DNA of 64,000 nucleotides from an uncultured Enterobacteriaceae bacterium (GCA_964617355.1 CAZTXP010000037.1:2270-66269), one strand, 5' to 3'. Shown: positions 6,255-57,954, counted from the stretch's first letter. Made by a program: numbers and translations. The notes: a model not told the origin generated them from the sequence alone.

Positions 6255-7268
6255 TTACTTCCAGACCTGGGAACAGACTCGGTGGAAATTCCCCCCGAGG
6301 ATGCCGCGCACGGCCTCGTCGGGGTAGTTCTTGCGGCACATCAGCTCGGCGAGATCCTCGACCTGCTCGGGCTGCACGAACTTCGTGTGGCGGTTCGGCC
6401 GGCCCTGGTTGTCGGGCCAGGCGTCCGGATTGTCGTCGACGTACTTCCAGAATCCGGCCACGTCCTTCACGTAGTCGAGGCCGATGCCGGCGTGCTTCGC
6501 GCCGACCAGGTTCACGATGTGGTCGAGGTGGCGGAACATGGTCTCGCTCTTCGCCTCGACGTCGTCGAGGAACTCGCCCAGCCCGTTGACGCCGATCACG
6601 CCGCCGGTCTCGGCGCACTTCCTGATCTGGTCGTCGCGGATGTTGCGGTAGTGCGGGAACACCGCATGCGCGTTGCAGTGCGAGAAGATGCACGGCGCGG
6701 TGCTGGCCTCCATCGCCTCCATGGAAGTGCGGTACCCCGTGTGCGTGCCGTCCACCAGCATGCCGACCCGGTTCATCTCGCGGATCATCGTCAGGCCGAA
6801 GCGCGACAGGCCGGCGTCGGTGCGCTCGGCGCAGCCATCGCCCACGAGGTTCTTCTGGTTGTAGGCCATCAGCATGTGGCGCACGCCCAGCCGATAGAAG
6901 ACCTCCACCAGTCCGACGTCGTTGGCGAGCACGTTGGTGCCCTGGAAGTTCAGCGTGATCGCGAGCTGGCCGGCCTTGCGTGCCGCATCGACGTCGTCGA
7001 TCGTGCGCACGAACCGGTAGAGCTCCGGGTGCTTCGCGCAGACGGCGTACACCTTGCCGATGCTGCCGAGTGCGGTCTCGGGGCCGAAGGTCTTGTCGCC
7101 GCCGATGGTAAGCGACACCAGCCCGAACCCGGCCTTGCGAAAGCGCGGCAGCGTGATGCCGTCGGTGGCGTGCTGCAGGCCATACGGAACGGTCATGTCC
7201 CAGACGAGCGAGGAGCGGTACAGCTCCCGGGCGCGCGCGCCGATCTCGAGGGTCGGGCCGTGCTGCAT
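6255..7268 (-). CDS. Membrane dipeptidase (peptidase M19 family)
   Basis: RHMLMAYNQKN, GLSRFG..MIREMNRVGMLVDGTH, FSHCN, RNIRD, HAGIGLDY; start MQHGPTL at 7268. Confidence 0.88.
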   Translation of the reverse strand: MQHGPTLEIGARARELYRSSLVWDMTVPYGLQHATDGITLPRFRKAGFGLVSLTIGGDKTFGPETALGSIGKVYAVCAKHPELYRFVRTIDDVDAARKAGQLAITLNFQGTNVLANDVGLVEVFYRLGVRHMLMAYNQKNLVGDGCAERTDAGLSRFGLTMIREMNRVGMLVDGTHTGYRTSMEAMEASTAPCIFSHCNAHAVFPHYRNIRDDQIRKCAETGGVIGVNGLGEFLDDVEAKSETMFRHLDHIVNLVGAKHAGIGLDYVKDVAGFWKYVDDNPDAWPDNQGRPNRHTKFVQPEQVEDLAELMCRKNYPDEAVRGILGGNFHRVCSQVWK

Positions 7269-8248
7269 CAGGGTTGCTCCAGCCGGATGCCGCGCGAGCG
7301 CACCACGCGCCCGAAGCGCTCGTACTCGGCGCGCATGAACTCGGCGAACTCCGCCGGCGTGCCGCCCGACACCTCCCAGCCGAAGGCCGAGATCTTCTGG
7401 TGCACCTCGGTATCCTTCGCGAGGATCGCCGAGATCTCGCGCGACAGGCGCTCGCGCACCGCCGCCGGCACGCCGGCCGGCGCGACGATGCCGTACCACG
7501 AGCCGCCCTCGGCGCCCTTCAGGCCGAGCTCGGCGTAGGTCGGCACGTCGGGGATCCAGCGCGCGGCGCGCTGCGCGCCGCCGTAGGCGAGCACCTTCGC
7601 GCGGCCGTCCTTCTGCATCGCGGCGGCATTGATCGGGCTCGACACGATGAGATTCACCTGTCCGCCGAGGAAGGCGCTCGACGCCGGCGCCGCGCCCTGG
7701 AAGGGCACGTGCAAGAGGTCGGTGCCGGTGGCGGTCTCGAAAAGCGCCACGGCGACGTGCGCCGTGCTGCCGATGCCCCAGGTGCCGTAGGTGACCCGGT
7801 TCGGCTCGCGCTTCGCGGCGGCGACGAGATCGGCGACGCTAGCCACCTGCAGGTCCGGGCGCGCGAGCAGCGCGAACCAGACGGTGCCGACCAGCGTGAT
7901 CGGCTCGAAGCCCTTCTGCGCGTCGTAGGGCAGGCTGCGGTAGACGTGCGGGTTGATCGAGTGCGTGTCCGCGGTGGCCATCAGCAGCGTGTAGCCGTCC
8001 GGCGCCGCCTTCGCCGCCTGCTGCGTGCCGATGATGCCGTTCGCGCCCGCGCGGTTCTCGACCGCGACCGGCTGGCCCAGGCGCTTCGCGAGTTGCTCCG
8101 CCACGAGGCGCGTGGCCGAATCGGTGGCCGCGCCCGGCGGCCAGGCGACCAGGATGCGCAGCGGCTTCTCCGGGTACTGCGCCAGCGACGGCAGCGCGGC
8201 GGCCAGCAAGGCCAGCAGTGCGATGAGTCGGGTCACTCGTGCGCGCAT
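7268..8248 (-). CDS. Bug/TctC tripartite tricarboxylate transporter substrate-binding protein
   Basis: Signal peptide, YPEKPLRILVAWPPG, VENRAGANG, PDGYTLL, HVPFQG. Confidence 0.92.
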   Translation of the reverse strand: MRARVTRLIALLALLAAALPSLAQYPEKPLRILVAWPPGAATDSATRLVAEQLAKRLGQPVAVENRAGANGIIGTQQAAKAAPDGYTLLMATADTHSINPHVYRSLPYDAQKGFEPITLVGTVWFALLARPDLQVASVADLVAAAKREPNRVTYGTWGIGSTAHVAVALFETATGTDLLHVPFQGAAPASSAFLGGQVNLIVSSPINAAAMQKDGRAKVLAYGGAQRAARWIPDVPTYAELGLKGAEGGSWYGIVAPAGVPAAVRERLSREISAILAKDTEVHQKISAFGWEVSGGTPAEFAEFMRAEYERFGRVVRSRGIRLEQP

Positions 8249-50608: not shown

Positions 50609-51058
50609 TCATGCCGGATCCCGCGTGTACACGATGAACCCAAGATGCTTCGCCACCTTGTCGTACAGCGCGCGCCCGGCCACGTTGCCGACCTGCGTCT
50701 GCCAGTACACCCGCTGCGCGCCCGCGGCCCGCGCCTCCGCGTACACGCCCTCGATCAGCGCCCGCCCGACACCGGCGCCACGACGATCCGGGCGAGTGAA
50801 GAGATCCTGCAGGTAGCAGACCGGCTCGATCTTCGTCGTGCTGCGATGGAAGAGATAGTGCACGAGGCCCACCAGCCGCCCCTCCGACTCCGCCACCAGC
50901 GCGAACACCGGCTCCGCCGGATCGAAGAACCGCTCCCACGTCGCCGCCGTGATCGCCTCCGGCAGCGCCGTCTCCCCGGCGCGGCCGTAGAACGCGTTGT
51001 AGCCGTCCCAGAGGGGGCGCCACTCGGAGTAGTCAGCGCGGGCGATAGATCGGATCAC
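50609..51058 (-). CDS. GNAT N-acetyltransferase
   Basis: W..LW.GYN.FY, CYLQDLF..P..RG.GVGRALI, VYWQT...N..GR.LYDKVA. Confidence 0.92.
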   Translation of the reverse strand: MIRSIARADYSEWRPLWDGYNAFYGRAGETALPEAITAATWERFFDPAEPVFALVAESEGRLVGLVHYLFHRSTTKIEPVCYLQDLFTRPDRRGAGVGRALIEGVYAEARAAGAQRVYWQTQVGNVAGRALYDKVAKHLGFIVYTRDPA

Positions 51059-51645
51059 GATGGAAGCAGGCCGTTGTCTGAGGAACGTTCAACTCCGCCA
51101 ATCGAAGCCCCTGCAGCGATGGGTTGGGCCTGAGCTTCGAGAGTACGAACCAACATCCCTGCGCCAGTTAGCTGCCCGAGGAGAATTGCGATGTCCGATC
51201 GAAACCTCTCCGCCATGGCCTCCCTATCGCTTGGGTCAATCTCAGGATCGTTAAGCAACGGCGCCAATTCCTTGCGAAGGCTCAGAAACCGAATGACACG
51301 ATCCCTAAGCTTGGGGCTATCAAGTTTATGCGCCAGATCGTTCCGTATCGAGTTCAAGGCGTCGATTAGTGGCCACAGGCCCGTCCATACAATGTGTCCA
51401 GAAAGCGCCCGCGCGACCCTCGCTTTGACGAAGAAGCCGATCTCGATTCCGTTCAGGTGTTCTGGTTGTCTACAGTAGAAGCGGATCAGATCATCGAGCG
51501 CCTCGTCTGCGAGCAGATGCCCTTTCAGGGCTATGAGGATGAGGTCCTTTCCAAGGGGCAAATGCGTCCGTACCCGCTCAATGCGAATCTCCGCTTCCGC
51601 ATCGATCTGAAGTGGAACCCTGTCAGACACTGATTTCAGGTCCAA
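51055..51645 (-). CDS. Cassette protein, helical, with R-x4-H (HEPN/MtlR-like) motif
   Basis: TTG start lies inside the GTTGGAC core; LKGHLL..E and RNDLAH motifs; 3' end runs through a decayed attC. Confidence 0.7.
   Translation of the reverse strand: MDLKSVSDRVPLQIDAEAEIRIERVRTHLPLGKDLILIALKGHLLADEALDDLIRFYCRQPEHLNGIEIGFFVKARVARALSGHIVWTGLWPLIDALNSIRNDLAHKLDSPKLRDRVIRFLSLRKELAPLLNDPEIDPSDREAMAERFRSDIAILLGQLTGAGMLVRTLEAQAQPIAAGASIGGVERSSDNGLLPS
51080..51129 (-). repeat. Decayed attC site inside the ORF 3' end
   Basis: Minus strand GCCCAAC CCATC GCTGCAGGGG...GAACGTT; R'' intact, R' degenerate (GTTCCTC), centre shortened. Confidence 0.5.
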
Positions 51646-51744
51646 CGTCCACGGCCGCCAGCGCGCGCAAGGTGTGACGACTCACGATGTACGTCGCTCG
51701 CACGCACGTCCGAGTGGGTCGTGTTGCTAAACCGCAGGTTCAGT
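51640..51744 (-). repeat. attC site
   Basis: Minus strand R'' ACTGAAC ... R' GTTGGAC; internal dyad ACGACTCAC/GTGGGTCGT. Confidence 0.68.
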
Positions 51745-51761
51745 CGCCTCTGGCTCATAGC

Positions 51762-52124
51762 TCAGCGCGGCTCGCGCCAACCATTAAGTCGTCCGCCGAG
51801 GAAGTCCGCACTACCGCCCCTGGGGTAAGTCCACAAGGTTAGAGACGAGCTGGCATCGACCCTCTGTGGTTCGCCCAAGATGGAACGCACGTCGCTCTCC
51901 GTCATTCCGCGCCTAAGGGAGCGCCAGCTCTCCATTTGCCGCCAGCCGTCCGACTGACCAGGCACGGGCTTAGGGGCACTAGAGGGAGACGCGGGATACG
52001 TACCTTGCTTCTCAAGTTGCTCTACGCGACGTTCAAGGTCGCGAACGCGATCATCGAGGGACTGCGCAGACGCTACGGCGCAGAACACCGTGCCCAGAAC
52101 GATGCCAGCTAGACGCTCAATCAT
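51762..52124 (-). CDS. Cassette-encoded exported protein (coiled coil plus SmpA/BamE-like repeat)
   Basis: Signal peptide MIERLAGIVLG..ASAQ; W..L..GMT..DV..ILGEP. Confidence 0.65.
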   Translation of the reverse strand: MIERLAGIVLGTVFCAVASAQSLDDRVRDLERRVEQLEKQGTYPASPSSAPKPVPGQSDGWRQMESWRSLRRGMTESDVRSILGEPQRVDASSSLTLWTYPRGGSADFLGGRLNGWREPR

Positions 52125-52145
52125 CCTGAACCCCCGTTCTATGCA

Positions 52146-52244
52146 GCTTAACGTTCGCCATGACCGGATGCCGGCGCGCAAAGCGCGACGAGTACCCAAG
52201 AGCGGCTACACTTTTGTGCGCTCCGGTAGATTGCCGGGTTATGC
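52146..52244 (-). repeat. attC site
   Basis: Minus strand R'' GCATAAC (contains the upstream TAA stop) ... R' GTTAAGC; ACCGGA/TCCGGT dyad. Confidence 0.75.
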
Positions 52245-52841
52245 CGCCGTTTCATAGGTCGACCTATAGGCCTCCCGTAGTTTGATCGCGAGATCGTTAG
52301 ATTTGACCACCGATGCAATTCCTACCCCTGCCAGCAACGACAGCGTCGCGGATGACGTGAGCAGACCGGCGACATGCGCCGGTTTGTAGCTCTGAACAAT
52401 CTCGTCCCTTGTAGTTCTCGCCATTACTTGAATGATTCCACCGTGAGTGAAGTCACAGAGATTCCGCCACAACTTGCTCTTCATCCTCCGGAGCTCGCCA
52501 CGGGTGAAAGCCTCCCGCGCTTCCAGTTGCTGGATCAAAACTCCTGATTTAGGCGGCTCAGAACCCCGGAGGAAGTTGGCGATCTCTCGGTCCGACGCAC
52601 AGAGGTGATACCACGCCCCTCGCAGGTACGCCTCAAACTCTGGGCGGAAAAGTGCGAAGGCCGATCCGCATAGGTCATGCTCAACTAAGGTGTGAATTGC
52701 AGTGTAGTGCTCAATAGCCAGATGATGCAGTGACGCTGACACACGGGCCCGGTTCGTTGTGGAGAAACTGACGCCGTCGATCAATGACGTCGACTCCATC
52801 ATCCAACGTAGCGACTTTTTGAATGCGTCGTCAAGCGGCAT
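52239..52841 (-). CDS. Cassette hypothetical protein (DUF6988/DUF5677-like, helical)
   Basis: HLAIEH..AI, SAFALFRP.FEAYLRGAW, LCDFTHGG; family name from recall. Confidence 0.6.
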   Translation of the reverse strand: MPLDDAFKKSLRWMMESTSLIDGVSFSTTNRARVSASLHHLAIEHYTAIHTLVEHDLCGSAFALFRPEFEAYLRGAWYHLCASDREIANFLRGSEPPKSGVLIQQLEAREAFTRGELRRMKSKLWRNLCDFTHGGIIQVMARTTRDEIVQSYKPAHVAGLLTSSATLSLLAGVGIASVVKSNDLAIKLREAYRSTYETAA

Positions 52842-52890
52842 AGCGTCAACGCTGAGGCGCGCGCCGGTCTTTGCGCGTCGCCTCCGACGC
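52838..52890 (-). repeat. Decayed attC site
   Basis: Hairpin GCGTC..GAGGCG.CGCG/GCGCG.CGCCTC.GACGC; R' reads GCTATGC, one change from the GTTATGC that would pair with this cassette's own GCATAAC; R'' lost. Confidence 0.55.
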
Positions 52891-52891
52891 T

Positions 52892-53719
52892 CTATTGGCG
52901 TGTACTTTGACTAGAGGCTGCCGCGAGTGCATCACCGAACACCTGAGCGTAGTCCACGTCGAAGGGCTTTGAGACGACAACGAGTTTCCCGGAACCACTA
53001 AGATCCTCCAGTAAGGCCTTTGCTGCTTCGTGATCGATGGGAAGGGGAATCCTCCCAGGGCTTTCGATGTGCGCGGAGTGCGCGAGCCCTGCCGCATAAT
53101 CCGCCAGCAGAAGTAGAGGCTCTTCCTCCTCAGTTGCCACGAGAACCTCGCGAGTCTCGAATCTGAAGCCACGCTCTGCCATGCGGGGTTGATGGCGATC
53201 ACTCCGTTCAAAAAAATATCTGAACGCAGAAAGATTCTCCTCGCCCTGAATGTCCGAATCGCACACTATCGTTCGCTCGACAATTTCCAGCCCCCGGTAG
53301 TCGAGAATGCGGGTTCCCCGGCTAACCTTCACCGCGTGACCGAGCGCAATCCCGTATGCATGCGCGAGAAGGCCGAAGAGAGCGACGTTCGCAGGCTTAA
53401 CGAAGCCTGCCGGCTTACCGTCCTGCGCAACGATAGCGTCCTGGAGAGGCTTTGCGGCATCCCAAAATTCAGGCCAGCGTTCCGGGTCTTTGGTCATTGA
53501 AACAACTGCGACTGATGCTGCCCCGGCCATCAGCTTGACTGCAGCGTGTGCGTGCTCCATGCCGCAATCGCGCCACTTCGGAAGTTTGCGAACGTGATCT
53601 CGAATCGCTTCTGCACGCGCACTGTGAATGGCTACCGCTGCCCCTGTCATGCGATCACTTCCGGCGCTGGCTCTGGACCGGCGGCCTGCGATGTCGGCAA
53701 CTATCGTGTAACGGCTCAT
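52892..53719 (-). CDS. Cassette protein, DUF3800-like RNase H fold
   Basis: N-terminal IVADIAG, central VCDSD, C-terminal LLLADYAAG acidic motifs. Confidence 0.6.
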   Translation of the reverse strand: MSRYTIVADIAGRRSRASAGSDRMTGAAVAIHSARAEAIRDHVRKLPKWRDCGMEHAHAAVKLMAGAASVAVVSMTKDPERWPEFWDAAKPLQDAIVAQDGKPAGFVKPANVALFGLLAHAYGIALGHAVKVSRGTRILDYRGLEIVERTIVCDSDIQGEENLSAFRYFFERSDRHQPRMAERGFRFETREVLVATEEEEPLLLLADYAAGLAHSAHIESPGRIPLPIDHEAAKALLEDLSGSGKLVVVSKPFDVDYAQVFGDALAAASSQSTRQ

Positions 53720-53732
53720 CGCATGTTGTGCA

Positions 53733-53813
53733 CTCTAACTTTTCGCTTTTGCCGCGCGGCGCGATCGGCGGAGCCGAAGGCGTAACGCGTCGAGCAATAA
53801 CGCGGCGTTAGAT
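53733..53813 (-). repeat. attC site
   Basis: Minus strand R'' ATCTAAC ... R' GTTAGAG; inner dyads TTTTGC/GCAATAA, CGCG/CGCG, TCGGC/GCCGA; 81 bp. Confidence 0.82.
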
Positions 53814-53814
53814 C

Positions 53815-54114
53815 TCATGATCCCTTCTTCCATTTGTTGGCCGGAATCCACCTCTCCTCTTCCTCAAGGAATTTGAATAGGTCGTCATACTCGTTGGAGC
53901 CGGACGTCGTTTGATCCTCTACGCTGCAAAAGAAGCACTGCTCCTCGGGACGCCATACGACTTGAGTTATGCCGCGTGATGTGAACTGGGATGTCTCGAT
54001 GCCGAGCTCAACAAATGGTGCAAATGGGAGTTCCAGCTTGCGAAAGAACGACATTCCGTGCTGCTTGCGCTCGGAATCCTTCCATAGCGACACAGTAAGC
54101 ACAACGGTGTACAA
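53815..54114 (-). CDS. Cassette hypothetical protein (99 aa)
   Basis: ORF fills the space between two attC sites exactly; TTG start a few nt after GTTAGAC. Confidence 0.65.
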   Translation of the reverse strand: MYTVVLTVSLWKDSERKQHGMSFFRKLELPFAPFVELGIETSQFTSRGITQVVWRPEEQCFFCSVEDQTTSGSNEYDDLFKFLEEEERWIPANKWKKGS

Positions 54115-54117
54115 GAT

Positions 54118-54198
54118 GTCTAACGTCCCGGGTGTGGCGCAAAGCGCGCATAGCGCAGCGGTGCGCGAAATTGGTCAACTGCCAGCCGGCTGTTAGAT
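54118..54198 (-). repeat. attC site
   Basis: Minus strand R'' ATCTAAC (contains the TAA stop) ... R' GTTAGAC; CCGG..TGGC/GCCA.CCGG and GCGCGCA/TGCGCG dyads; 81 bp. Confidence 0.85.
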
Positions 54199-54651
54199 CT
54201 CACCCAGCCACCTGCGAATCAGCCTGTAGGAGCCAGATGTTGCCTCACGAAGCGGTGTGATCGTGGCTGTCATTACCAGATGCTCCCACTCACGCGCATT
54301 GGTGACGAAGTCTCCGTAGTAACGCACCTCGTCGACAGGGCGGAAATGTCGGAACCATACTCCAAGTTCTGGCGCTGTGGCCCGGATGTAGTTGTAGGGT
54401 CCTGAGATTCGCGCAAGTGCAAACGGAAAGTGGTGTGTGAAGAGAAGGACCCGGTCGCCCACATCCATCTCATGTGCAAACGCCCAGTAATTGCGTTGAT
54501 TTGTAGGGAGTGCTTCCTGCCTAACCGTCATTAGATCAGGAACGTCTTCCTCAAAGTCCAAGCCTATATATCCCGAAGTCAAGCTTTCCACCGTGTGCTT
54601 GATCGCACCCTCAGACTCACTTGGGTGCAGTTGCATTCGCCAGTAGGTCAC
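54193..54651 (-). CDS. Cassette protein, PUA/EVE-like domain
   Basis: YWRM, F..EM.VGDRVL, G.Y.YI, HFRPV pattern; GGAG RBS. Confidence 0.6.
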   Translation of the reverse strand: MTYWRMQLHPSESEGAIKHTVESLTSGYIGLDFEEDVPDLMTVRQEALPTNQRNYWAFAHEMDVGDRVLLFTHHFPFALARISGPYNYIRATAPELGVWFRHFRPVDEVRYYGDFVTNAREWEHLVMTATITPLREATSGSYRLIRRWLGEI

Positions 54652-54685
54652 TGTGTCTCCGATCGCGCGATAGCTTTGCTGTGAG

Positions 54686-54747
54686 GTCTAACGTGTCGTT
54701 CAGCGGCGCTCGCTCGCGAGGGGCCGCTGCAACGGATTCTTGAGGGC
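54686..54747 (-). repeat. attC site with degenerate R''
   Basis: Minus strand GCCCTCAAG AATCC GTTGCAGCGG...CCGCTGAAC GACAC GTTAGAC; L''/L' pair with one extra base. Confidence 0.75.
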
Positions 54748-55491
54748 GTCACCTTCCTGAACAATCAAGGCTGGTGGCGCCGCATACAGCAAAGATCGCA
54801 GAATCGGCCCACGAAAGCCCGTCTTCTCCCGGATTCGCACCTTTAATGCATCTACGTCGGGTTCAGGCATTCGAGGGTCTATCATGATCTGATCGATAAA
54901 TGCATAAGGGTCGACGCTGTAACAGTACAAGTCGCCAACCGTTTCTGCGGCACTGTGCTGGAAGTAAAGAAGCCTTACTTCGCGCTCGTGTTTGAATGCC
55001 GGTCTCTTGACTAAGAGGGTTTCCGCTGAGACTCGCGCCCGCAGTCGGTGCGCCCCTGGGAACCAGCTGCTAGCGAATGCGCTAAGCCGTCTGCTGGGGA
55101 GGTATCGAACCTTGCCGATAAACGCCTGGATCTGCGCATAGTCTCCAAGCACTGTGCTGAGACTCTCTGCCAACGTTTGGATAGTCGAACGTATGCGAAT
55201 TGCGCTTCGATTGGGGGAGTAGATGCGCCAAATTGCATCTGAGGACGATTGCAGGGTCCAGCATTGACCGTAGAACTGATCGTGAAAAGAGAACTGCGCG
55301 AGCTGTCCTGTCTCCAGTCTGATGCGAGCGCGCAGAATGAAGTTTTCAAAAGGGTCATCCCACTTCCTAGGCTTGACTAGAACGTTCTGTCGGTTCTCAA
55401 ACAGTTCAAAGAGTCGCTCCACTGGAACAATTCGATAGATATGCCGAGATCGCATGGCTCTCGGTATCTCAATGTAGTTGTCGTCATCCAT
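54700..55491 (-). CDS. Cassette protein, DUF2971-like
   Basis: YR, P..WDDPFE, CWT....SDAIW.IYS, K...F.HEREVR; reads through the attC. Confidence 0.68.
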   Translation of the reverse strand: MDDDNYIEIPRAMRSRHIYRIVPVERLFELFENRQNVLVKPRKWDDPFENFILRARIRLETGQLAQFSFHDQFYGQCWTLQSSSDAIWRIYSPNRSAIRIRSTIQTLAESLSTVLGDYAQIQAFIGKVRYLPSRRLSAFASSWFPGAHRLRARVSAETLLVKRPAFKHEREVRLLYFQHSAAETVGDLYCYSVDPYAFIDQIMIDPRMPEPDVDALKVRIREKTGFRGPILRSLLYAAPPALIVQEGDALKNPLQRPLASERR

Positions 55492-55511
55492 CGCCCGAGG
55501 TTCAGCGTCGC

Positions 55512-55545
55512 GCCCAACGTTGTATAGATCGCCTAGCAGTCGGGA
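55512..55545 (-). other. attI-like recombination site
   Basis: Minus strand TAGGCGATCTATACAAC-GTTGGGC ahead of the first cassette, with no partner R'' palindrome upstream. Confidence 0.5.
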
Positions 55546-55699
55546 TGCAATCCGACTGATCTAGCGAGTCTGTCCGATTCCGCATTGGAATCAAGTGCAA
55601 ACGAACATCTCCCGGAATCATCTGGTCCTGTCCAACGCTGTTCGTCAGGATTTCATTCGCCGAATCAGCCTTCTACACCCGCGCGGGTGGTCTCGCGCC

Positions 55700-55993
55700 A
55701 GCGCAATGTGCGAAAGCGCACCGGTTTCCCCCTTCGCCCCCGCCGCGCGCGACGCGGCGCGCCGGGAAAGAAGGCGAGGATTGTCCGAGCCCTGAGCGGC
55801 CCTTGCGAGGGGCGAGTTCCGCAGCCGCCCGGCGCGTCGCGGCGCGCGTGGTGCCCGTCGCGCCGGCAGGCGCGGCGGCGGGGGCGCAGGGGCGTGCTTT
55901 CCGGGCGTCACCTGCTTTGCACGAGCAAAGGAGGTGACCGCAGGTGCGGGGCGCGCAGCCCCGCGTAGCGAAGCGCGCAGCGCGAGAGCGCGC
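55700..55993. ncRNA. Highly structured non-coding element (multi-branch hairpins; repeat/MITE or structured RNA)
   Basis: 55729-55746 pairs with 55875-55892 (17/18); inner stem near 55747-55766/55828-55847; TCACCTGCTTTGC-ACGA-GCAAAGGAGGTGA and GCGGGGC-GCGCA-GCCCCGC hairpins. Confidence 0.5.
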
Positions 55994-56440
55994 CTACTCC
56001 AGTTCCCGCAGCTTGATGCCTTCCATGTTCTGCACGATCGGCTTCCCGCCGGCGCAGAGCACCGAAGCCTCCTCGCGGCCGTTGATGACGACCGTCACCC
56101 CGCCGCCATCCGGATGCTTGTCGTCCAGCCGGTCCATGCCCCAGAAGACGTCGTAGACGGTATTGCCGTTGGGCACCTGCACGGAATACGAGATGCTGCG
56201 CCCGATGCCCTTCCACTGGCGCGTGGACGCATCCTTGCGCAAGGCGCGCACCACGATCTCCGGCTTCCTGCCCGGCACGCCGAACGAATAGTCGATCGTC
56301 TTGCCGGAGTCGCAGACCTCGATCTGCTTGCCGCGCGAGGTGAGGCACGAGAAGACCGTCTCCGTGCCCTTCTCGCACGCGGCGAGCGCGAGCGACGGCC
56401 CGAGCGCGACCGCGGCCGCGACCACCCACCGAGCGATCAA
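55994..56440 (-). CDS. Hypothetical exported protein with Cys pairs
   Basis: Signal peptide ending LALAAC; VFSC...GKQIEVC, YSFG; TTGA overlap with pap. Confidence 0.65.
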   Translation of the reverse strand: MIARWVVAAAVALGPSLALAACEKGTETVFSCLTSRGKQIEVCDSGKTIDYSFGVPGRKPEIVVRALRKDASTRQWKGIGRSISYSVQVPNGNTVYDVFWGMDRLDDKHPDGGGVTVVINGREEASVLCAGGKPIVQNMEGIKLRELE

Positions 56441-57954
56441 GACTTCTTCGCCTTCTTCTTCGCACCCTCGATCGCGTTCTCGACCGCGTCCACGACCGTC
56501 TTCACGATCTTGGCGCGCGCCCAGTACTTGTCGTTCGCCTCGATCAGCACCCACGGCGCGTGCGAAGTGCTGGTGCGCTCGATCATGTCGGACGCGGCCA
56601 CCTGGTAGCCGTCCCACTTCTCGCGGTTGCGCCAGTCCTCGGCGGTGATCTTGAACTGCTTGAAGCGCGTGCGCTCGCGCATCTTGAAGCGCCGGTGCTG
56701 CTCGGCCTTGGAGATCTGCAGCCAGAACTTCAGCACGATGGCGCCGTTCTTGGCGAGCTGCTCCTCGAAGTCGTTGATCTCGGCGTAGGCGCGCATCCAG
56801 TCGGCCTCGGAGCAGAAGCCCTCGATGCGCTCGACCAGCACGCGCCCGTACCACGAGCGGTCGTAGATCGTGTAGCGCCCCTTGCGCGGCACGTGCCGCC
56901 AGAAGCGCCACAGGTAGGGCTGCGCGCGCTCCTCGTCGGTGGGCGCGGCGATCGGGATCACGTTGTAGAGCCGCGCGTCCAGCGCCGCGGTGATGCGCCG
57001 GATCGCCCCGCCCTTGCCGGCGGCATCCATGCCCTCGAACACGCAGACCACGGTGCGGTCCTTGAACGCCGGGTCGCGCGTCAGGCGCGCGAGCTTCGCC
57101 TGTTGCTTCTCGAGTTGCTTGGCGTACTTCGGCTTCGGCATCGCGGCCGAAAGATCCATGCGATCGAGGATGCGCACGCGGTCGGCCGGTTCGGTGAGCG
57201 GCGCGGCGAGCGACGCGGCCATGGGTTTCTGCCCCGCGGCCTTCTGCGCGATGCGCTTCTGCAGCGCCTGCAGGATGGTCTTGCCCACGGTGACGGCGCG
57301 GTACTCGGGGTCCGAGCCCTCGACCACGATCCACGGCGCGGCGGCGGTGCTGGTCTCGCGCAGGGTGTCTTCGCTCACGCGGTAGAAGCGGTCGTACATC
57401 TTGAAGAAGTCCCAGTCGCGCTCGCTGATCTTCCAGCTCGTGTCCGGGTCGCTCTCGAGCTTCTTCAGGCGCTTTCGCTGCGCCTTCTTCGACAGGTGGA
57501 ACCAGAATTTCAGGATCAGCGCGCCGCCGTCGGCGAGCATGCGCTCGAAGTGGTTGATCTCCTCGATCGCCTGCACCTGCTCGGCCTTGCCGGTGCGGTG
57601 GAACACGCGGTCGATGATCGGCGCGGTGTACCACGAGCCGAACAGCATGCCGATCTTGCCCTTCGGGGGCAGCGCGCGCCAGTAGCGCCACATCGGCGGG
57701 CGCTCGCGCTCCTCGTCGGTGGGGTTGTCGAACGCATGCGTGTGGATGTGGCGAGGGTCCATCCACTCGTTCAGCAGGTTGACCGTCTCGCCCTTGCCGG
57801 CGCCGCGCACGCCCGAGATCAGGATGATCACCGGGAACGAGCCGTCCTTGGACAGCGCGAACTGCGCGTCCAGCAGGTCGGCGCGCAGCTTCGGCTCGAT
57901 GCGCTTGTATTCGCCCTTGGAGAGCTTGTGGCCGATCTCTGCAGCTTCGAACAT
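56437..57954 (-). CDS. pap: Polyphosphate:AMP phosphotransferase (class II PPK2, two domains)
   Basis: GAGKGETV and EGMDAAGKGG Walker A motifs, WY, DRSWY, KFWLQIS, N-terminal MFEAAEIGHKL. Confidence 0.93.
   Translation of the reverse strand: MFEAAEIGHKLSKGEYKRIEPKLRADLLDAQFALSKDGSFPVIILISGVRGAGKGETVNLLNEWMDPRHIHTHAFDNPTDEERERPPMWRYWRALPPKGKIGMLFGSWYTAPIIDRVFHRTGKAEQVQAIEEINHFERMLADGGALILKFWFHLSKKAQRKRLKKLESDPDTSWKISERDWDFFKMYDRFYRVSEDTLRETSTAAAPWIVVEGSDPEYRAVTVGKTILQALQKRIAQKAAGQKPMAASLAAPLTEPADRVRILDRMDLSAAMPKPKYAKQLEKQQAKLARLTRDPAFKDRTVVCVFEGMDAAGKGGAIRRITAALDARLYNVIPIAAPTDEERAQPYLWRFWRHVPRKGRYTIYDRSWYGRVLVERIEGFCSEADWMRAYAEINDFEEQLAKNGAIVLKFWLQISKAEQHRRFKMRERTRFKQFKITAEDWRNREKWDGYQVAASDMIERTSTSHAPWVLIEANDKYWARAKIVKTVVDAVENAIEGAKKKAKKS

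Follow-up and report, generated by a model that had tools for sequence, protein, structure and literature searches.

A GC-rich, self-folding DNA unit of about 300 nt, set between an integrase-less cassette array and core genes, is probably one arm of a non-autonomous foldback or MITE-like element that carries an orphan attI with a cassette array and is filled in trans by a resident IntI. The unit lies at 55693..55990 of the window, by which we mean the whole 64,000-nt stretch of DNA that was analysed (contig C37:2270-66269 of a 5.0 Mb assembly in 210 contigs), and is described here on the + strand, its better-folding strand. An initial annotation of the window had suggested a non-autonomous mobile element or a structured RNA at this place. 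That suggestion has since gained a dispersed repeat family, covariation within the fold and, in a related family of repeats, insertion polymorphism.

The window locus may illustrate how platforms that capture cassettes come to be duplicated to other places on a chromosome, and it bears on where cassette arrays without an integrase (CALINs and SALINs) come from. A non-autonomous element could copy an integron platform that has no integrase, and the copy could then be filled in trans, a route that is open to testing. The repeats also add a large, structurally constrained family that is absent from Rfam, that breaks short-read assemblies of these soil bacteria, and whose insertion signature falls outside the standard transposon classes.

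Structure of the repeat unit

Homology among five genomic copies that are 77-91% identical places the conserved extent of the unit at about 55693-55990, compared with 55700-55993 as first given. Its multi-branch core (55729..55892, + strand), for which the MFE and centroid structures are concordant, is enclosed by an outer stem of 18 bp in which 55729-55746 pair with 55875-55892 at 94% complementarity (inverted repeat I7 of the repeat search). The long inner stem corresponds to direct repeat D5, with 55735-55762 and 55820-55847 both paired in the MFE fold. Three further elements were read from the sequence, namely CCCTTGCGAGGG at about 55801-55812, the hairpin CGCGCC-GGCA-GGCGCG at about 55860-55875 and the hairpin GTGCG-AAAG-CGCAC at 55709-55722. 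Beyond the core on the + strand are the hairpin TCACCTGCTTTGC-ACGA-GCAAAGGAGGTGA (55909..55938), in which four pairs have changed on both sides among the copies and are still paired (alignment A3, columns 236-240 with 261-265), and the terminal hairpin GCGGGGC-GCGCA-GCCCCGC (55947..55965), which adjoins the stop codon of a core gene and is conserved in four copies. All the hairpins and stems that the initial annotation had claimed were recovered where it had put them or within a few bases.

When folded as RNA, the + strand of 55690-55995 reaches -203.9 kcal/mol, as against -176.8 +/- 5.9 for 100 dinucleotide-preserving shuffles (z -4.6), none of which folded as well; the - strand gives a z of -3.3. 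Mechanical open reading frames cross the unit on both strands (127 aa on +, 88 aa on -), but indels of 1 nt between the copies break every frame (alignment A3). These frames are not conserved and a coding reading is ruled out, in keeping with the earlier remark that the region holds no credible ORF. The window contains no tRNA or tmRNA gene, which also rules out a tRNA-targeting island.

Copies in the genome and their flanks

Searches of the whole genome with BLAST and nhmmer found five copies of the unit, on contigs C37, C181, C157, C76 and C61, the C181 unit being 91% identical to that of the window. When the copies are oriented as in the window, the 1.5-6 kb to their left have a GC content of 0.47-0.63 and the DNA to their right has the genomic value of about 0.70. 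The low-GC side is the same in five of the five copies, with core DNA opposite, and the low-GC genes beside the copies are all transcribed away from the unit. In three copies the outer end of the unit is 0-25 nt from the stop codon of a core gene. The copy on C61 (C61:21850-23100, loci L005/L006) is split by a 1.25-kb insertion that encodes a 399-aa IS481-like transposase, and the cargo beside it is a response regulator and histidine kinase cluster with a GC content of about 0.5, not cassettes. An extra match to the core motif on contig C38 has no unit around it and was set aside as chance.

On the core side of the window unit lies a gene for a small exported protein of 148 aa (55994..56440, - strand), whose stop abuts the unit, and then a PPK2 gene (56437-57954, - strand; Pfam match of 462 bits). 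The TGA stop of PPK2 and the TTG start of the exported-protein gene downstream overlap as TTGA at 56437-56440, an arrangement which suggests that the two may be translationally coupled. PPK2 is kept in genomes of the same genus at 86%; the small exported-protein gene and everything to its left are not kept.

The full unit was found in none of 40 relatives at E<=1e-10. The nearest relatives of this genome are 76-86% identical and retain only one flank of the loci, and searches with the PPK2 neighbourhood and with the joined flanks of three other loci returned no empty site for the loci of this genome. Each of the five copies is a single arm; BLAST, Smith-Waterman comparison with shuffles, nhmmer and a covariance model run with its filters off found no second, inward-facing (-,+) partner in the 9 kb around each copy, nor any in the 64-kb window.

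An orphan attI and its cassette array

The homology of the C37, C157 and C76 copies runs about 175 nt past the GC-rich unit and ends just before the first low-GC gene, and about 130 nt beside the unit in these copies are homologous to the attI of the complete integron of the genome. A TIGR02249 search located intact intI genes at C144:62930-63874 (483 bits) and C73:8849-9787 (365 bits). The two integron integrase genes are of different types and each is followed by low-GC DNA; together with at least four orphan attI platforms, these two loci give the genome at least six cassette-bearing loci.

In the window the orphan attI occupies 55511..55639 on the - strand, with its core G|TTGGGC at 55518-55512, and is recognised because both the C144 attI and the attI modules in a related metagenome-assembled genome (MAG) are homologous to it. 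It aligns with the stretch of C144 between intI and the first cassette. The homology, about 130 nt, terminates in CGTTGGGC, so that a G|TTRRRY crossover stands at the head of the cassettes, and the boxes CAACGTTGAACAGG and CAGGCGGATTGCAYTCCGACTTTTAGGCAACCTATAYAACG|TTRRRY are common to the orphan and C144 sites. Across the whole genome, an HMM of the attI module found the three orphan copies, the C144 site and one marginal match on C54 (E 8e-4). The three orphan copies align up to CGTT and are then unrelated (GGGCGCG, AGCCCTC and AGGCGTG), so that the divergence of C37, C157 and C76 falls exactly at the G|TT integron crossover; the first cassette thus differs from platform to platform. The C181 unit is joined to a different sequence, which ends in CAACCATTTCACGTTGGGC and resembles the integrase-adjacent site of C73, CAACAATTTCACGTTAGGC. 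Within this genome, then, the unit is found fused to attI sites of two types.

Only the 300-nt unit separates attI from the core gene at the window locus, and no intI lies there beside attI as it would in a complete integron; intact intI genes are confined to C144 and C73. The initial annotation had placed the element where intI should be, and the adjacent 130 nt are indeed an attI homologue followed by cassettes. It had further proposed that the element disrupted or replaced intI. The absence of intI agrees with this, but the joint between unit and attI is identical at three loci, which argues that an already integrase-less module was copied and that no intI was disrupted at the window locus. 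The linker between attI and the unit (55640..55722, + strand), which includes the GTGCG-AAAG-CGCAC hairpin, has about 60 nt that, in two copies, run colinear with C144 intI codons 3-25, at about 2 sd above shuffles. This segment is a possible, and doubtful, relic of the 5' end of intI; no similarity of the unit to intI was found beyond the linker.

Behind the window attI is a low-GC (0.55-0.59) array of about seven genes, all on the - strand (51055..55511), which was delimited by composition and attC and contains no integrase. It fits the description of a CALIN, that is at least two attC and no integrase in the locus, with one clean attC of 81 nt (54198-54118) and GTTRRRY at further cassette boundaries. 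The first cassette ORF (54700..55491, - strand, 263 aa) starts 20 nt past the attI core site. Most of the cassette proteins belong to no Pfam family. At E<=1e-3 there was no Pfam match for 52892-53719, 54193-54651 or 54700-55491, and the matches in the array region are at 52239-52841 (DUF6988) and 50609-51058 (GNAT).

Two metagenome contigs from a closer relative carry the same arrangement. The first holds an orthologue of the C157 locus (89% over 5.3 kb), in which unit and attI are kept and homology ends exactly at the crossover, where there is an IS110-family transposase. The second has the unit and attI followed by yet another first cassette. On Ga0172373_10021655 (L108:54-1058), an orthologue of the C157 platform, this IS110-family transposase (DEDD_Tnp_IS110 and Transposase_20) occupies the exact attI crossover, a position reminiscent of the IS1111-attC group, which targets integron sites. 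A RibD_C/DHFR-like gene was met twice, once as a cassette inside a pair of units of the related MAG (L064:779-1336, inner) and once as a close homologue on C157, where it is found at the far end of the array (extract coordinates 7108-7668) with a GC3 of 0.92. The C157 array may thus extend further and be partly ameliorated.

A foldback repeat family in related genomes

An exact-pattern scan of one genome per species located the core of the unit in the long-read MAG CAVRDW01 ("uncultured beta proteobacterium MFD10007.bin.2.212"), from the same bacterial family and a different genus. The core 14-mer GGCGAGTTSCGCAG occurs there at least 67 times (34 forward and 33 reverse), compared with none for the reversed control. 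The dispersed intergenic repeat that the initial annotation had associated with betaproteobacterial genomes is thus real, with five copies here and dozens in related genomes. The units of the MAG are about 200 nt long and have their central 65-100 nt, a core of about 80 nt, in common with the window unit. This core domain (55755..55835, + strand), within which a pattern search placed GGCGAGTTCCGCAG at 55811-55824, scores 37.1 bits (E 7e-7) against positions 60-137 of a covariance model of 40 MAG units and matches the related family with an E of 4.7e-9 in nhmmer; the covariance model also matches the other four copies of this genome. The window unit has the conserved core stem-loop GAGGAYTGTYY...GGGCGAGTTSCGCAG. 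Its closing stem differs from that of the type family in consisting of the 18-bp outer stem and an outer 4-bp helix, and its alignment with the type family is confined to model positions 60-137, so that the window unit represents a distinct subfamily. A further variant was seen in genome G041 (loci L028, L051, L076-L078, L080 and L082), where a subfamily of the units of about 200 nt has an insertion of about 70 nt between model positions 177 and 179 of the arm.

All 22 of the 22 close pairs of units in MAG CAVRDW01 are in (-,+) order, with inner ends facing and 0.03-2.3 kb apart. Near-empty pairs form near-perfect palindromes of 350-500 nt. Filled pairs contain low-GC (0.54-0.64) cassette-like genes, among them BrnT/BrnA, a GST operon and HIT, VOC, OsmC-like and RibD_C-like genes, and no transposase was found inside them. 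In at least six pairs an attI module lies beside one arm, homologous to that beside the intI of the MAG itself, and these pairs also hold attC repeats in common with the main array of the MAG. Arm, attI and cassettes are thus arranged in another genus as they are in the window, and there the second arm exists as well. Several more genomes, from genera g2, g4 and g9, have multiple copies of the core motif, many of them at the ends of contigs, and (-,+) pairs were found in four of these genomes.

Insertion evidence and landing sites

The joined flanks of five MAG pairs were compared with 25 genomes of the genus of the MAG, and a contiguous empty site was found in some species for each of the five loci. 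At the cleanest locus, where flank identity is 91-94%, the empty site consists of two convergent genes that share a CTAG and reads GACGGCTAGCGCTT, in the context ...GTCGTCATCGACGGCTAGCGCTTGAAGCGG...; the occupied site reads ...GACGGCTAG-[1173 nt: arm, cargo, arm]-CGGCTAGCGCTT..., and CGGCTAG stands on both sides of the 1173-nt insert. At other MAG loci the direct repeats are GCTAGGCG, GTGAACTnCTAGC or YTAG and lie 20-40 nt outside the conserved part of the arms. Target duplication, which had been proposed as a check on mobility, was thereby found around pair and cargo. The direct repeats contain CTAG and range in length from 4 to more than 13 nt (4, 7, 8 and about 13 at different loci), and the arms end in 15-40 nt that differ from copy to copy. 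Variable repeat length and non-conserved termini do not fit a classical DDE transposon.

In the related genus, then, the pair of arms with its cargo is demonstrably an insertion as a whole. This evidence for mobility is limited to the related subfamily of about 200 nt, whose 80-nt core is the only part in common with the window unit. The intergenic spots that hold MAG elements hold unrelated insertions in other species, and insertions in general seem to favour places where CTAG stop codons overlap. At L099 (G325:C67:10994-12049) and L095/L098, different insertions lie between the same two convergent genes across species, one of them being an unrelated palindromic element of 204 nt (GGGGTCAGAGCAACATT...AACAATGTTGTTCTGACCCC).

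Covariation, strand specificity and alternative readings

The RNAalifold consensus of the 40 MAG units has 61 pairs, 24 of them with double-sided changes. In the alignment 94.9% of cells are paired, compared with 39-46% when the partners are slid by 1-3 columns, and doubly changed cells number 185 as against 26-47 in the slid controls; none of 500 shuffles attained any of the observed covariation measures. The S of the core motif covaries with G/C in GAG[G/C]AC (27 G-C and 13 C-G), and in the outermost 8-10 pairs of the closing stem sequence varies between MAG copies while complementarity is kept. Covariation, a check suggested at the outset, also extends to the window type, for which a comparison of the four full copies here shows compensatory changes at 14 of 107 consensus pairs, four of the 14 being in the 55909-55938 hairpin. 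The strand that corresponds to the window + strand is the more stable in 39 of 40 MAG units and in all four copies here. When this strand is folded, the ratio of G.U to A.C is 173:29 in the MAG units and 39:1 in this genome, compared with 104:42 and 8:5 when the opposite strand is folded. The window unit shares with the family its long closing stem, its compensatory changes and its preference for one strand, and the bias in stability and in wobble pairs indicates that one single strand is constrained. Given the (-)cargo(+) geometry, outward transcripts or strands carry the well-folding version at both ends.

The unit might instead be primarily a functional structured RNA (an sRNA, a 3'-end or an insulator element), transcribed on the window + strand, for example from a former intI promoter in the attI region, and spread only secondarily. 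We regard this reading as unlikely. The strength and strand specificity of the covariation, with G.U tolerated on one strand only, are in its favour, as is the 80-nt core conserved across genera, and both the lost intI and any transcript that leaves the platform have the well-folding strand as their sense strand. The G.T wobble is, however, the most tolerated mismatch in DNA hairpins, so that strand bias does not separate RNA from single-stranded DNA; covariation and strand bias fit the two equally and cannot tell them apart. A consensus scan of 55350-56100 found no sigma-70 promoter or intrinsic terminator, and no Rfam family matched at gathering score over the whole 64-kb window, group II intron domains included; over the unit region the comparison with Rfam recommended earlier yielded just two chance-level matches at E<=10 (E about 8). 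Moreover, units that mirror each other about their cargo, at sites which stand clean and empty in sister species, have the traits of insertions and not of genes. A hand-picked TTGCAT/TATACA promoter pair in the region failed the criteria of the consensus scan.

Another possibility is that the folded unit is itself a recombination substrate of the integron system or of another site-specific recombinase, a giant attC- or attG-like site at which recombination would bring cargo into the middle of the palindrome. The cassette-like cargo, the attC repeats as in the main array, the six or more pairs with an attI module and the joining of the unit to two attI types would all suit this reading, and attC sites likewise function through strand-specific folding. 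The GTTAGAC at the centre of one empty palindrome points the same way; other empty palindromes have no GTTRRRY centre. Some of the cargo consists of ordinary genes without att sites (the GST operon, kinases), and the absence of the whole pair at orthologous sites would be left unexplained. We think the substrate reading quite unlikely, as the stem bases of the unit bear no RYYYAAC/GTTRRRY boxes and its length is 2-5 times that of any attC. A giant attC was rejected because the unit has no R/L boxes.

Spread as a REP/REPIN-type repeat by a RAYT (HUH Y1) transposase is improbable. The initial annotation had pointed to a cognate HUH/RAYT transposase as something to look for, and there are two Y1_Tnp genes in this genome, one in the repeat-rich MAG and some in most of the other repeat-bearing genomes tested, while two same-genus genomes without the repeat have none; the organisation in inverted doublets also recalls REPINs. 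The expected link did not materialise. The 1.5 kb on either side of the Y1_Tnp genes that were examined contain no unit, and one genome with ten core matches has no Y1_Tnp match. The units measure 200-300 nt, compared with 20-40 nt for REPs, and enclose kilobases of cargo, which REPINs do not. More broadly, no transposase or other mobilising gene was found linked to any copy.

It is scarcely credible that the unit is a decayed intI remnant or chance GC-rich pairing, since, for all that it stands where intI belongs and the first 60 nt or so past attI align weakly with the 5' end of intI, it has five copies, compensatory changes, a fold z of -4.6 and no similarity to intI beyond the linker, and its 80-nt core recurs in dozens of units unlinked to attI in other genomes. 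The weak colinear similarity of the linker, at about 2 sd above shuffles, was all that a decayed intI had to offer, and that candidate was rejected.

Proposed working of the element

The reading that we favour, an arm of a non-autonomous foldback element with an integron platform as cargo, would work as follows. The hosts are a family of uncultured high-GC soil betaproteobacteria. Each arm is a GC-rich unit of 200-300 nt with a strand-specific fold, a closing stem and the conserved core stem-loop, and a complete element has two inward-facing arms around foreign low-GC cargo. Elements sit between genes, typically at the overlapping CTAG stop codons of convergent genes, where a short duplication preserves both stop codons. 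An enzyme supplied in trans would recognise the folded arms, probably as single-stranded DNA, and move or copy the element.

In one sub-lineage the cargo would be an integrase-less integron platform made up of attI, at most about 60 nt of intI relic and inserted cassettes; the window would hold such a copy, in the order arm, linker, attI and cassette array. The intact C144 and C73 integrases may act in trans on the orphan attI, and such action would account for the first cassette being different in every copy. A further effect of the arm may be to shield the neighbouring core operon from transcription leaving the platform; we propose this because outward transcripts carry the well-folding strand.

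A bolder version, which we put forward as an outside chance, is a distributed integron, in which a dedicated foldback element spreads copies of the attI platform over the chromosome and many capture sites are thereby served by just one or two integrase genes, and in which the strand-specific arms form a new class of single-stranded DNA substrate. The folded arms would then be processed either by the integron integrase or by some recombinase as yet unrecognised. Such processing would account for termini and CTAG-containing repeats that vary and for a strict inward geometry, none of which is predicted by a classical transposase.

Comparison with known systems

The closest known systems are the MITE-bounded integron remnants, namely IMU and TIME-COMPs (PMC13367494), and CALINs (PMC4889954). 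In IMU, TIME-COMPs and MITE-flanked class 1 integrons, two short non-coding repeats of about 200-290 bp bound a segment without a transposase, the segment can be an integron remnant with intI truncated or absent, and the unit inserts with flanking direct repeats by means of an enzyme needed in trans (PMC13367494; PMC3575428). The elements described here are alike in being repeat-bounded, transposase-free segments with an integron remnant and direct repeats at the insertion. They differ in several respects. TIMEs have Tn3-type terminal repeats of 38 bp and fixed duplications of 5 bp, whereas here the termini vary, the CTAG repeats vary in length, and we identified no parent element, that is no autonomous transposon with matching terminal repeats. 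TIME-COMPs occur with both orientations of the repeats, whereas the present family is inward-facing in 22 of 22 pairs. Each arm here is a covarying, strand-specific fold, and the elements are chromosomal, number dozens of copies, belong to environmental bacteria, and have attI platforms where the known systems have resistance genes.

CALINs and SALINs are attC clusters or single attC sites without an integron integrase (PMC4889954; 10.1101/2022.09.11.507474), and most of them are not beside intI pseudogenes or known transposable elements (10.1101/2022.09.11.507474). The window array resembles them in having attC sites with no integrase nearby and complete integrons elsewhere which could act in trans (PMC4889954; 10.1101/2022.09.11.507474). 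CALINs are defined without attI, whereas here a recognisable attI homologue heads the array and is repeated at three loci or more, joined to a dispersed repeat. This suggests that the platform was copied, and that intI was not lost in situ nor the array inserted at attG sites.

With REPINs the units have in common that they are GC-rich, extragenic, palindromic and non-autonomous repeats that form inverted doublets between genes; they are ten times longer, enclose kilobases of cargo and do not flank Y1_Tnp genes as REP/REPIN repeats of 20-40 nt flank a RAYT. With attC sites they have in common a structure that is conserved while the sequence varies, strand-specific folding and an association with cassettes. 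An attC measures 57-141 nt and sits at the 3' end of its cassette, whereas the unit measures 200-300 nt, lacks the R''/L''/L'/R' boxes and sits outside the cassettes. What sets the present case apart from all of these is the combination of covarying strand-specific arms, strict inward geometry, variable CTAG repeats and a repeated orphan attI.
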